A stretch of DNA of 64,000 nucleotides from a virus (taxonomy: Duplodnaviria > Heunggongvirae > Uroviricota > Caudoviricetes). The notes beneath the pieces were generated by a model. It saw only the letters and a program-made list of their open reading frames with translations. It made no database searches and was not told where the DNA came from. The stretch lies in IMG/VR virus record IMGVR_UViG_3300049830_000314; one strand, written 5' to 3'. Position numbers and translations under genes: made by a program. The first letter of the stretch is position 1. Every line of letters starts with the position of its first letter. Of this stretch, positions 2,939 through 33,593 are shown in pieces.

Positions 2939-3087
2939 TTCTTTTGATTCTTAAGCGCTTTTGCAATACGTTCATCAATTAAAGCAACGAGTGTTTTATT
3001 GGCAATGTGTTTTTCAACTTGCGCCACGGAATGTGGGCACATAGAGAAATCTCGCTTGCAAATCGGGCATGTGTCGTATTTAGCCAC
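2935..3087 (-). CDS. Small hypothetical protein (50 aa, CxxC)
   Basis: Manual: MAKYDTCPICKRDFSMCPHS...; fills gap and overlaps both neighbours. Confidence 0.5.
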   Translation of the reverse strand: MAKYDTCPICKRDFSMCPHSVAQVEKHIANKTLVALIDERIAKALKNQKK

Positions 3088-6976: not shown

Positions 6977-7861
6977 TTAACTCAAATCGGCTGGTGCTGC
7001 CCAACAATCGTATCCACAAACACCCAGGAAAGCTGGATATGTAATACCATCACGACTGAACCAAATAAGAAATGGCTTGTCCAAGAATAGACGAGGTTTG
7101 AAATCCATGGACATGCTTCGCGATTTAGTCATAACAGCCGCAGACTTGGCTGTTGCGCCTTTTTCATTTAATTTCAAAATGAATTGCTGAATGCAAGCAT
7201 CAATTCTCCACCCATCGGAGTTCATGCCGACAACCCAACCTTGTACTATTTGAAAATCCATGTTAATCATTGGAAGTTCTAAGCCATCATAGGCTTGTGT
7301 CGCATCGTAATAACCCATTTGAAGCTCACGCGCCAGTGTCAAAAGAGCCTCGTCGCCCATTTCTTCCATTTGCAATGGCATTGCTACAAAGACTTGTGTG
7401 TTATCTTCCTTTGTGGCAATTTGAGACATTCCCCATTGCGTTCCATTGACAGTGACTTTCTTACCTGGTAGTTTGGTAAAACTAGCGTAATCATAAGTAT
7501 TACCGTCGTTAGCTCTACCTTTGCTTTTTTCAGCTTCCTGAAGCCATTTCACCCACAATTTCACCACGCTAGCGGTTGCAAATCCACCAGGAAGAATTGA
7601 TGGACATTTGAGTGTAAATCCATGGTCTGATAGCCATTGGTTAATTTCTTCTTCTTTGTCAGAGGCAGTTGAGTCAAATTCTTCATCAGTGAGTGCTTTA
7701 ATTTGTGAACTAACTCCGAGATGCCGCTTAAAATCTTCTTGTTCTTTGTTGACAGGCTGCCAATCTTCTGAGATTGATTTGTATTCAGATGCTTTGAGCA
7801 AACAACCTACGAGTGGAATACGACAAACAGCGTGTGTTTTTACTTTGGTGATTGTATCCAT
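6977..7861 (-). CDS. Serpin-fold protein (N-terminally shortened)
   Basis: EINQWLSD (hF), VVKLWVKW (s3A), VFVAMP, LPMINM, IQQFILKLNEKGATAKSAA (s5A and hinge), LFLDKPFLIWF, AFLG. Confidence 0.75.
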   Translation of the reverse strand: MDTITKVKTHAVCRIPLVGCLLKASEYKSISEDWQPVNKEQEDFKRHLGVSSQIKALTDEEFDSTASDKEEEINQWLSDHGFTLKCPSILPGGFATASVVKLWVKWLQEAEKSKGRANDGNTYDYASFTKLPGKKVTVNGTQWGMSQIATKEDNTQVFVAMPLQMEEMGDEALLTLARELQMGYYDATQAYDGLELPMINMDFQIVQGWVVGMNSDGWRIDACIQQFILKLNEKGATAKSAAVMTKSRSMSMDFKPRLFLDKPFLIWFSRDGITYPAFLGVCGYDCWAAPADLS

Positions 7862-7879
7862 AGTGATTTAAGTATACCA

Positions 7880-31053: not shown

Positions 31054-31057
31054 GTTT

Positions 31058-31407
31058 TGGAGTCGAAGGGAATCGAACCCTTTTCCAAAATGACTAACTA
31101 CCAAATCACCACAAGATTCTTCTCTATTTTTTTCTCGTGATAAGCTTTGGAAGAGACCAACCCGTCTTATCACCAGTTCGATTGTTTTTCGTCCCTTTAT
31201 CTACGAACAGAAGCGTCGGGGCTTATTCAGATTTGACTGCACTCCATACCCGTTACTGAACCACAGGTACTTCATGTCGCTTCAATTAAGCAGCGAAAGC
31301 AAAGTTTGTTTTGCCATTTGTTTTTTCTCACCATTTTTGCGTGGCCAAGATGAGTTCCACGTCTTGCAATTTGATGCTAACGCATCCTGTCGAAGCCTGA
31401 CGACCCC
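31058..31407 (-). ncRNA. ssrA: tmRNA, tag peptide (A)GKTNFAFAA
   Basis: 5' GGGGTCGTCAGGCTTCGAC; 3' GGGTTCGATTCCC-TTCGACTCC-A; acceptor stem with G3-U pair; tag ORF 31286-31315; 350 nt; CCA not encoded. Confidence 0.93.
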
Positions 31408-31794: not shown

Positions 31795-31895
31795 CTTTTG
31801 CGGTATATTATCCTTACTCTCATTATTGGGGAATCTGGTGTGAATCCAGAACTGTATCGCAGCGGTGTGTTGAAAGACGAGTCCGAATGCCAGAG
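31795..31895 (+). promoter_or_regulatory. Cobalamin riboswitch (class II-like, short P6)
   Basis: GGGGAA-TCTGG-TGTGAAT-CCAGA-ACTG-TATCGCAG-CGGT...GTT-GAAA-GAC-GAGTCCGAATGCC (B12 box). Confidence 0.85.
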
Positions 31896-31965
31896 AGTGA
31901 CAGCGCCGCGAGTTACGGTAGCCGGGATGAAGATTCATCGCCTCTACAACTCTCGGAGGTATAAG

Positions 31966-32733
31966 ATGAAAAAAGCATTCACACTAATCGAACTTCTCGT
32001 AGTTATCGCCATTATTGCAATTTTGGCAGCCATTCTCTTTCCGGTTTTTGCACAAGTTAAAGCAGCCGCTAAAAAAACCCAAACTCTCACCTATCTGAAA
32101 CAAATTAATTTAGCTTCTAGCATGTATTCAGATGATAATGATGGCATTTTGATGCGCGACCATATTAACAGCGCGAGTAAAACTTACTATTGGTGGGGAA
32201 GCTGGGACGGCACAACTCTCAAGCCTGAAGAAAGCTACCTATATCCGTATATTAAAAGCACAGGAATCTCTTCTGACCCTGTGTTCCCAAATAGTCTTAG
32301 AACAGCGTTGGGTTTAACTGGTTTTGGATATAACTACGCTTATCTCTCGCCAACTAACTATGATTCAAATTGGAATGAAGTCCCTGTTTCCGTATCTAAT
32401 ACCGCAGCAGGAAGCCCCGCAGAGACGATTTCTTTTGCCACAGCAGCAAGAATCAATAACTGGGCGTTTAATCCCTGGAAACTCGAAGGAAGCACCCTTA
32501 TTGACCCGCCTAGCTATCAATACCCCGGTGTCCATGCGCGGCACGTCGGTGAAAAAGCTATTGTTGCTTGGCTGGATGGACATGCCAATGCAAAATCGGT
32601 ATCTTATCGCAAAGGTGCTTTTGGCTATGGGTTTGATGGAGATTGGTATAAAAAAAGCACACTGGGAGATATAATGAACTCCCAATGCGCTTTTGATTCA
32701 GATTGTCAAGACTTTTATTACGACTTGAATTAG
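31966..32733 (+). CDS. Prepilin-type N-terminal cleavage/methylation protein with DUF1559/H-X9-DG C-terminus (start revised)
   Basis: SD GGAGGT; MKKA|[26 protein letters not shown]; VAWLDGHA. Confidence 0.9.
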
Positions 32734-33593
32734 TTACAAGGATTTGCGTTCCAAGGTGCTGAGCTTGGATAGAATCTGTCTCCGTACTCATAGTTATCTG
32801 GATTAAGAGTCTGCTCAAGCTTTTGGAATTTTGCATGTCCATCAGCGAATGAGTAGTTAGCTCCACCTTCCCACTTTTTACCTGAGTGTCTATCCCAAGC
32901 CACTCGGGTAACGTCAACGTCTTTGTAATCAGCTTTCTTTCCACTTAAATTAGCTGCCTTCACCAATTGTGCATCAGTGTAGCTGTAAGTGAAAGGCGCT
33001 GGGAATCGACCACCGTAAGGAACGAATGTCCAATTTGGACATGGCTGAGAAGGCAAGAACCCACTCAATCCCTTATGGGCGTCACCAGAGTCACCCGTGT
33101 CTCGCTTCTCTGTCACCAAAATGGTAGTAGCTGGTGTGTTAAACGATGTCATAGAAACTGGCAACCAATCATGTGCTGGCATCGCGTTATAGTTAGGAAT
33201 ATAAGAGTATCCCTTGACTGGAATCCAGTCACAAATCATTGGCAATTGACCGAGTGCGGCATCACTAGCGCATGCAACCGCTGGCTTTACAGGCGCGGAA
33301 TCAGATGGACATTGAAACATCTGAAAACTCTTGATGTACGGCTGCATTAAAAATGACCAGTGTACTTGTTTAGGGTAAGTGTTGCTCTTTTCCCAACTTG
33401 TTTGACAAAGCATGTCGTCGTTGTCTCCAGCATACATAAACAAGGCAGTCGCCATTTGTTTGTCGTTGCTAAGACAAGATGTTTTCTTTGCAGCTTCCTT
33501 TGCCTGAGCAAAGACAGGGAAGAGAATAGCGGCTAAAATTGCAATAATTGCAATTACCACCAATAGTTCGATAAGTGTAAAACCTTTTTTCAT
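32730..33593 (-). CDS. Prepilin-type N-terminal cleavage/methylation protein with DUF1559/H-X9-DG C-terminus
   Basis: MKKG|[34 protein letters not shown]; FQCPSD; [11 protein letters not shown]. Confidence 0.92.

Follow-up and report, generated by a model that had tools for sequence, protein, structure and literature searches.

A class-II cobalamin riboswitch aptamer before a prepilin-type gene in a putative huge phage, with a proposed role in corrinoid capture

The subject of this work is a leader and its gene at positions 31,795 to 32,733 of a 64,000-nucleotide stretch of viral DNA (the window; IMG/VR record IMGVR_UViG_3300049830_000314, Caudoviricetes). The leader carries a class-II cobalamin riboswitch aptamer, and the gene behind it encodes a prepilin-type, pilin-like protein of 255 residues. 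With moderate confidence, we read this unit as a functional class-II riboswitch, made of the aptamer and a regulatory hairpin (P13), in a huge phage whose hosts are probably Armatimonadota; the phage would have captured it from its host together with the gene, whose product would be a corrinoid-capture protein repressed by vitamin B12. The elements of the unit are as follows.

31804..31809, + strand: -10-like box TATATT, 4 nucleotides (nt) 5' of helix P1; putative promoter, without a good -35
31814..31900, + strand: class-II cobalamin riboswitch aptamer, RF01689 (AdoCbl-II)
31814-31819 with 31895-31900, + strand: aptamer helix P1
31855-31859, + strand: aptamer loop L5 (UAUCG)
31905..31919, + strand: P13 regulatory hairpin, stem GCCG/CGGU, 4-5 nt after P1
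31909-31915, + strand: loop L13 (CGAGUUA), predicted kissing partner of L5
31906..31956, + strand: alternative "long hairpin", predicted ON state; minimum free energy (MFE) fold in short constructs
31934..31945, + strand: sequestor strand UUCAUCGCCUCU, 12 nt, pairing with GGAGGU (31955-31960) and GAUGAA (31965-31970)
31955-31959, + strand: Shine-Dalgarno (SD) sequence GGAGG, read from the sequence and kept in the four-phage alignment
31966-31968, + strand: start codon ATG, read from the sequence and kept in the four-phage alignment
31966..32733, + strand: gene of the prepilin-type pilin-like protein, 255 residues, ATG at 31966; PF07963, TIGR02532

The aptamer and its regulatory hairpin

The whole window was searched with cmscan, and two RNAs only were returned above their gathering scores, a transfer-messenger RNA (tmRNA) and the AdoCbl-II aptamer. 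The RF01689 match at 31814-31900 covers the full model (1-81) and scores 38.7 bits, where the gathering score is 36.5 (E-value 1.2e-5, or 5.5e-7 over the local 2.9 kb), and our own covariance model, R2, scores the aptamer at 82 bits. In the RF01689 alignment, J3/4 is GGGGAA, the P4 T-loop is GUGUGAAUC, P5 has 3 bp, and P6 is lengthened by a GAAA-capped stem (GUU-GAAA-GAC); the GCCA core is present. The GGGAA junction, the T-loop-like L4 and the GCCA core of the "B12 box" are invariant columns in our alignment of class-II aptamers, in agreement with the Rfam consensus. An initial annotation, made from the letters alone, had described a complete compact B12 aptamer and had proposed a run of Infernal with cobalamin models; this run recovered the aptamer in full, with every element that had been named. 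The RNA is thus a class-II cobalamin riboswitch aptamer, predicted to bind cobalamin, and its preference between methyl- or hydroxocobalamin and adenosylcobalamin (AdoCbl) is not deducible from the sequence.

The same aptamer was found in three related phage loci, L001 (40.7 bits), L029 (40.6 bits) and L030 (44.2 bits), the RF01689 scores of the relatives overall being 40.6-62 bits. A first covariation set of 11 aptamers was composed of the window, these three loci and seven strong marine RF01689 members (72-93 bits). Over the 22 Rfam pairs, 95.8% of the cells of this set pair and both sides change in 14 pairs; none of 500 shuffles matched the observed level, and slid partners gave 26-45%. In a second set of 29 aptamers, all of which stand before pilin-type genes, 91.1% of the cells pair, with two-sided changes again in 14/22 pairs and 122 compensatory cells. 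Helices P1 and P3-P6 round the four-way junction are backed by compensatory changes in both alignments, and P1 alone has three different sequences among the phage loci with its pairing kept. Compared with L030, the window has 89% identity in the aptamer (over 128 nt) and 71-72% in the flanking protein genes. The TATATT/TATAAT box is also kept in all four phage loci, and a sigma-70 consensus scan of the leader reported no promoter.

The initial annotation had also stated that the riboswitch controls the pilin-like gene. The aptamer part of this statement was confirmed, and a canonical P13/L13 regulatory hairpin, which was not part of it, is added here. The homologous hairpin of the pilin-only locus L034 is P13 in the curated Rfam RF01482 alignment. 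Across about 29 orthologous leaders, the sequence of the P13 stem is free while its pairing is kept (CCG/CGG, CACCUA/UAGGUG, GCCAA/UUGGU, CCCUU/AAGGG, GCCUG/CAGGC). In these same leaders L5 and L13 co-vary as UGCCG-CGAGCA, UAUCG-CGAGUUA, UGUCG-CGAAUCA, UCCCG-CG(A/C)GAGAA and UCGCG-CGCGNNA, which points to a kissing pairing of L5 with L13 in the window. Two other partners of L5, the 3' strand CGGU and the apical loop of the hairpin 31926-31939, had been considered and were replaced by L13 after this comparison. In cobalamin kissing loops, L13 has unpaired nucleotides and must be presented on a stem-loop (PMC5028336); in the pairings proposed here L13 position 3 stays unpaired in most types, which agrees with this published rule. 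A co-variation of L5 and L13 was also seen in marine aptamers linked to the domain DUF6580, UCCAG with CUGGA versus CCUG with CAGG.

Downstream of P13, two mutually exclusive folds are predicted. The long hairpin is closed at its base by CCG-GAGUU (31906-31914) with AACUC-CGG (31948-31956), followed by GUAG (31918-31921) with CUAC (31944-31947) in the middle and an apical hairpin GAUGA/UCAUC (31926-31939). It is the MFE fold of 4/4 phage leaders in short constructs (to AUG+5), and its middle helix differs between the window and L001/L029/L030 by a compensatory exchange of A-U for U-A; in the window the long hairpin leaves the AUG free with 3/5 SD nucleotides paired. When P13 is formed in a constrained fold of the window, the SD (5/5) and the AUG (3/3) are entirely paired, at -20.9 kcal/mol versus -21.1 kcal/mol for the rival fold. 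Two such near-isoenergetic folds exist in all four phage leaders. The P13-compatible one pairs 4-5/5 nucleotides of the SD and 2-3/3 of the AUG, and the rival one only 2-3/5 of the SD in all four, the AUG being free in the window and in L001. MFE folding of the entire leader was not separable from shuffles (z 0.04). The anti-SD pairing GCCUC:GGAGGU put forward in the initial annotation was borne out as the inner half of the longer, 12-nt sequestor at 31934-31945 that covers both SD and start. Because UUGUUUCA:UGAAACAA takes its place in the relatives and fits their respective start regions, the UUCAUC:GAUGAA pairing of the window's sequestor appears re-matched to the window's own start region.

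These folds suggest a translational OFF switch on the 255-residue gene. Bound cobalamin would steady the kissing of L5 (UAUCG) with L13 (CGAGUUA), which would fix nucleotides 31906-31914 in P13, and the base of the long anti-sequestor hairpin would then be lost. The freed strand 31934-31945 could pair with the SD and the AUG, and translation of the prepilin-type protein would be turned off.

The closest described system is env8HyCbl, also of class II (Johnson et al. 2012; Polaski et al. 2016, PMC5028336), which shares with the window a compact aptamer with a four-way junction and a short P6, a P13 only a few nt after P1, an L5-L13 kissing loop with unpaired L13 nucleotides, and translational control (translational control in the window being the predicted one). 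The window differs in that L5 is one nucleotide shorter and P6 has a small GAAA-capped extension; in that the ribosome site lies about 45 nt 3' of L13, not in L13, with a predicted relay via a competing long hairpin and the 12-nt sequestor; and in that the switch is phage-borne with a pilin-like gene as its target. The RNA belongs to a known riboswitch family; what is unusual is its relay platform. In one bacterial orthologue, L310 (G110:C12:243049-243121 and downstream), P1 and the start codon are just 24 nt apart, and a loop assigned to L13 by eye (CUUCGAGAA) seems to hold the ribosome site (GAGA); this would be an env8-like direct mechanism, unlike the phage relay.

The controlled gene and its bacterial counterparts

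The gene starts at the ATG at 31966, a TTG start at 31798 being an artefact of the mechanical list of open reading frames (ORFs). Its product matches PF07963 (30.6 bits, cut-off 21.2) and TIGR02532 (31.8 bits, cut-off 16.3), and has the prepilin leader MKKA/FTLIELLVV (the slash standing at the cleavage position), in which residue -1 is Ala, not Gly, as in most orthologues. The initial annotation had called it a prepilin/DUF1559-type, H-X9-DG gene. The prepilin motif was confirmed, whereas the DUF1559/H-X9-DG models (PF07596, TIGR04294) gave no match at their thresholds and the C-terminal motif is RH-X10-DGH; relatives do reach the DUF1559 model (P0012, PF07596 26.3 bits, cut-off 23.3), and several bear the Joint Genome Institute (JGI) label H-X9-DG. 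The AlphaFold2 (AF2) model (mean predicted local distance difference test, pLDDT, 88) combines an N-terminal helix of 50 residues with a beta-rich head, and each of its 25 best structural matches is to a pilin or pseudopilin, although the matches are weak (best Z 5.3, root-mean-square deviation (rmsd) 3.5, 122 residues). A tblastn search of GenBank phages with the protein returned no match. Host prepilin peptidase would process the protein, and its N-terminal helix would anchor it in the inner membrane or display it from there.

Three bacterial chromosomal contexts present the aptamer about 100 nt 5' of an orthologue, among genes for Lnt, phosphoenolpyruvate carboxykinase, poly(A) polymerase and a KpsF-like protein, the contigs being as long as 1.3 Mb and two of them labelled Fimbriimonadales or Fimbriimonadaceae. 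The window protein is 54-57% identical to the Fimbriimonadales orthologues that have the same riboswitch. In the genomes G007 and G008, the sole R2 match is the riboswitch before the pilin orthologue. Loci with the pilin-type gene only, without DUF6580, also carry the aptamer: L279 and L280 (RF01689 56.1 and 62 bits), L034-L036 (RF01482 44.6 bits, under the gathering score of 50, E 2e-5; R2 38.9 bits) and L031/L033 (RF01689 34.5 bits; R2 40.5 bits). Since the independent contigs L279 and L280 and the three bacterial chromosomes share the aptamer directly 5' of the orthologue, the cassette is not an assembly chimera, the alternative that had been named at the outset as one that would overturn the proposal. 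On the bacterial-looking contig of L031/L033, near the riboswitch-pilin locus, an Acido-Lenti-1 RNA (RF01687, 38.4 bits, gathering score 37) lies at 7818-7870 on the - strand.

Across the phylum, an R2 match was present in 61/121 Armatimonadota genomes. At 22 of the 31 best Armatimonadota loci, a prepilin-type gene lies 25-300 nt downstream, its product being 33-57% identical to the window protein, and the other downstream genes that could be named by Pfam are those of CobU, MetE and the class-I ribonucleotide reductase (RNR) NrdA. As controls, the prepilin motif was present in 0/30 cobalamin riboswitch loci of another phylum (small genomes, probably not Planctomycetota, which serve as a negative control only) and in 0/80 DUF6580 loci. 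CobU, MetE and class-I RNR form the textbook B12 regulon. The class-II aptamer type was seen before MetE, class-I RNR (with ATP-cone) and CobU at L302, L306, L297 and L296, and these targets appear to outline the B12 regulon of the phylum. The question raised in the initial annotation, whether host homologues carry the same riboswitch, is thus answered positively: the pair was found in chromosomes of Fimbriimonadales and more widely in Armatimonadota, where the aptamer also precedes classic B12-regulon genes. A riboswitch labels the function of a gene directly, and here it assigns the pilin-like family to the B12 regulon across an entire phylum.

In a maximum-likelihood tree (midpoint-rooted), the phage and metagenome copies form one clade (support 100/99) nested among Fimbriimonadales orthologues. 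Because Armatimonadota carry the pair and the phage clade nests among the bacterial orthologues, the riboswitch-gene pair is taken to be host-derived, and its capture by the phage looks like a single event. Inside the phage clade, forms with and without a fusion to DUF6580 are interleaved.

DUF6580 fusions and the proposed role in B12 capture

The nearest relatives of the window protein (72-75% identity) are proteins of 423-426 residues in which DUF6580 (PF20221) precedes the prepilin leader, with the same riboswitch in front.

L001 2485-3765; L029 and L030 4001-5281: DUF6580-pilin fusions, with the basic leader and G/FTLIE kept at the junction

The in-frame fusion recurs, intact, in at least six distinct sequences. 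In the sister phages, the pilin-like protein is fused behind DUF6580, an S-component-like, putative B12 carrier, and prepilin peptidase could cut the fusion into carrier and mature pilin. The junction of L001 has an internal Met (..YTMARRKAG/FTLIE), which hints at two genes that were once separate. When DUF6580 (A3) and the pilin domain (A5) were modelled as a complex, the score was 0.00, a result that carries no weight either way.

The AF2 model of DUF6580 (pLDDT 90) has the six-helix bundle of an energy-coupling factor (ECF) S-component. S-components make up all of its top 17 structural matches (Z 11.1-14.2) and also the 18th (Z 8.5), whereas Z does not exceed 6.9 for unrelated folds; the top is a tie between BtuM (Z 14.1) and ThiT (Z 14.1-14.2). 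Searches of PDB chains with phmmer and a profile gave no sequence-level match to DUF6580, BtuM included. BtuM of Thiobacillus denitrificans (PDB 8C7P, 8OVV) is a solitary S-component-like B12 transporter in which Cys80 ligates cobalt (PMC6072759). DUF6580 of the sister phages resembles it in the six-helix fold (Z 14.1, rmsd 3.4, 159 residues) without a sequence-level relationship, and it departs from the BtuM family in that its invariant Cys/His residues lie elsewhere, Cys131 being in the last helix and not at the Cys80 position; moreover, the domain does not occur in the window.

In bacteria, the neighbours of DUF6580 include cobalamin riboswitches, BtuR and TonB receptors, and in Omnitrophota-type metagenome-assembled genomes the gene order is BtuR, DUF6580, riboswitch, TonB receptor. 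In species-representative genomes, an RF00174 riboswitch lies within 1.5 kb at 13 of 40 scanned DUF6580 loci, a sample made of an unselected batch (3/20) and of a second batch of 20 enriched by a motif pre-screen. In IMG/VR, a class-II aptamer was found at 16/80 DUF6580 loci, directly upstream in 15 and downstream in the 16th. Terminase was detected in four of five tested DUF6580-aptamer records (CheckV completeness 14-55%), and none in the fifth, which is 10% complete. Stand-alone DUF6580 genes directly preceded by RF01689 aptamers of 72-93 bits were seen in marine IMG/VR loci (L149, L120, L124, L118, L142, L126, L150-152, L170, L171 and L176).

From regulon membership in Armatimonadota and from the fusion to DUF6580, a role of the protein in corrinoid acquisition, first proposed in the initial annotation, is well supported as a prediction. 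Its likeliest job would be to capture corrinoids at the envelope and hand them over to an importer, and it may itself bind B12. Since the model of the protein gives only weak pilin matches, the evidence for corrinoid capture is genomic (regulon membership and fusion), not structural. Independent, "Rosetta-stone" evidence for the link between pilin and B12 comes from the phage proteins in which the pilin is joined to a putative B12 carrier. Bacteroides BtuG and BtuH are surface B12-capture lipoproteins of riboswitch-controlled btuB loci, with beta-propeller or other folds. They are comparable to the proposed protein as envelope accessories under a B12 riboswitch that catch corrinoids before a membrane transporter, although no structural similarity was found between these lipoproteins and the prepilin-type protein of the window.

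Several observations weigh against the favoured reading of a B12-repressed corrinoid-capture unit. The Rfam score of the window copy is only about 2 bits over the threshold, and the proposed kissing loop of L030 contains one A.C mismatch. In Foldseek and VIA searches, the pilin model matched neither a solute-binding nor a B12-binding fold. DUF6580 was absent from five host-like Fimbriimonadales genomes, in a search whose positive control worked, and neither DUF6580 nor NrdJ, the AdoCbl-dependent RNR, was found in the window, a 64-kb part of a contig at least 161 kb long. Finally, the folds are near-isoenergetic and the long hairpin also pairs 2-3 SD bases, which leaves the OFF polarity a prediction.

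The opposite polarity would make the long hairpin the block on the SD without ligand, and the P13 stabilised by cobalamin, by taking the CCG-GAGU strand, would free the ribosome site so that the protein is made only with B12. The short constructs to AUG+5, in which the long hairpin with its paired first SD guanines is the MFE fold of all four leaders, lean this way, as does a cost of about 6 kcal/mol to force the SD open. When the first codons are included, however, the P13-compatible fold hides both SD and AUG at equal or lower energy, and the same riboswitch type stands in the phylum before MetE, class-I RNR and CobU, classic B12-repressed genes. The cobalamin riboswitches known so far are almost all OFF switches. 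With env8 (PMC5028336) as a further precedent, we regard an ON switch as improbable. More improbable still is that the window riboswitch is a leftover, kept before the pilin gene without selection after an in-frame deletion had removed DUF6580 from an ancestral fusion. The SD and "ATGAAA" of the window do line up with the beginning of the DUF6580 ORF of L001, L029 and L030, which fits a loss of DUF6580 in the window lineage, and the window branches beside fusion-bearing sequences in the tree; DUF6580 has, by all appearances, been gained and lost within the phage clade. Nevertheless, the aptamer is far better kept than the flanking genes (89% vs 72%), the sequestor seems re-matched to the window's own start region, and bacterial hosts, like the independent contigs L279, L280 and L034, have the riboswitch directly before the pilin gene. 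A stronger version, with the window as a deletion relic and the riboswitch as that of DUF6580, was dropped, as the pilin-only L279, L280, L034 and L031 and the bacterial chromosomes carry the aptamer.

The most serious competitor, which we nonetheless hold to be unlikely, accepts the riboswitch as real and denies the pilin-like protein a role in B12 uptake. It would then be a B12-repressed component of the envelope or of a pseudopilus, for example a B12-independent substitute or a surface change, or, in the phage, a means of pilus-type receptor masking or superinfection exclusion; the DUF6580 fusion would be the mere insertion of a mobile riboswitch-transporter cassette alongside. Such a role would agree with the lack of a detected B12-binding fold in the protein model, with the B12 riboswitches that also repress MetE and class-I RNR in the same phylum, with the host-like genomes in which DUF6580 was not found, and with the second pilin-like paralogue of the phage, which has no riboswitch. 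It is less easily reconciled with a gene that is monocistronic behind the switch in many Armatimonadota, with an exported pilin-like protein as an unlikely isozyme replacement, and with an in-frame fusion to an S-component-like carrier kept intact in its at least six distinct sequences. Fusions and non-fusions also interleave in the tree, which points to repeated selection on the pair.

On the reading as a corrinoid-capture unit, the riboswitch-pilin pair and the DUF6580 fusion point to an undescribed B12-capture system exploited by phages, and the H-X9-DG subfamily and DUF6580, both uncharacterised, become testable parts of a B12 uptake route. A bolder and rather doubtful generalisation would make the very large DUF1559/H-X9-DG pilin-like superfamily a set of envelope nutrient-capture modules, with this subfamily as the corrinoid receptor; the self-contained, riboswitch-gated B12 importer that huge phages assembled from it would then be a DUF6580-pseudopilin polyprotein cut at the internal G/FTLIE by host prepilin peptidase.

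Phage setting and phage riboswitches

The claim that the unit lies in a phage was upheld. The neighbouring genes of the window encode Cpn60, Nudix, ATP-dependent DNA ligase, RtcB, NAPRTase-like, methyltransferase and glycosyltransferase proteins, and a virion-protein-like ORF with PHROG hits is also present. L030 has the gene order of the window (tmRNA, riboswitch, pilin, Nudix, Cpn60, Cpn10, ligase) at a DNA identity of about 71-72%. L001 belongs to the IMG/VR record G001, of 478,840 bp with direct terminal repeats (CheckV 100% complete), which has the same riboswitch-gene cassette in a rearranged neighbourhood and exactly one RF01689 match. These data support the assignment of the window to a huge phage, the host of which is probably a Fimbriimonadales-like member of the Armatimonadota. 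The remaining features are the following.

31055..31407, - strand: tmRNA, tag GKTNFAFAA; RF00023 138.9 bits, and ARAGORN
32730..33593, - strand: convergent paralogue, 287 residues, prepilin-type H-X9-DG / weak DUF1559; TIGR04294, PF07596
G001:C1:426896-428647 (locus L278 1129-3834): NrdJ, 901 residues; TIGR02504

G001 encodes the AdoCbl-dependent ribonucleotide reductase NrdJ (TIGR02504 454 bits, cut-off 400), and neither BtuR nor a PF02310 B12-binding domain was found in this 479-kb relative. The phage would raise B12 uptake only in infected cells with too little B12, so as to supply, for instance, an AdoCbl-dependent RNR, and this would be its benefit from the unit. It is suggested that huge phages manage the vitamin supply of their hosts, probably for B12-dependent nucleotide synthesis.

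The 287-residue paralogue matches TIGR04294 (20.9 bits, cut-off 19) and PF07596 (22.9 bits) and is 42% identical to the riboswitch-controlled protein over 171 residues; upstream of it, no cobalamin riboswitch match was found. In L030, the homologue of this paralogue is found 5' of the riboswitch and on the other strand, and because of this different placement the locus is taken as rearranged between the two phages. The tmRNA adjoins the riboswitch in L030 too, and in L002 it adjoins a riboswitch-less pilin homologue, with tRNAs nearby.

Riboswitches are rare in phages. The searchable literature contains no described cobalamin riboswitch in a phage, and nothing that joins prepilin-type or DUF1559 proteins with cobalamin or B12. 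New here are the phage-borne riboswitch-pseudopilin unit, the DUF6580 fusion in the sister phages and the re-tuned sequestor of the window. The glutamine riboswitch of pelagiphages and of Melnitz (PMC9004378) is comparable as a metabolite-sensing RNA in a large phage that times phage gene expression, with another ligand class and another target. On L127, one of the DUF6580 contigs, two further RNAs lie at 202-249 and 3006-3080, the glutamine riboswitch RF01739 (44.2 bits) and the freshwater-2 RNA RF02980 (53.2 bits).

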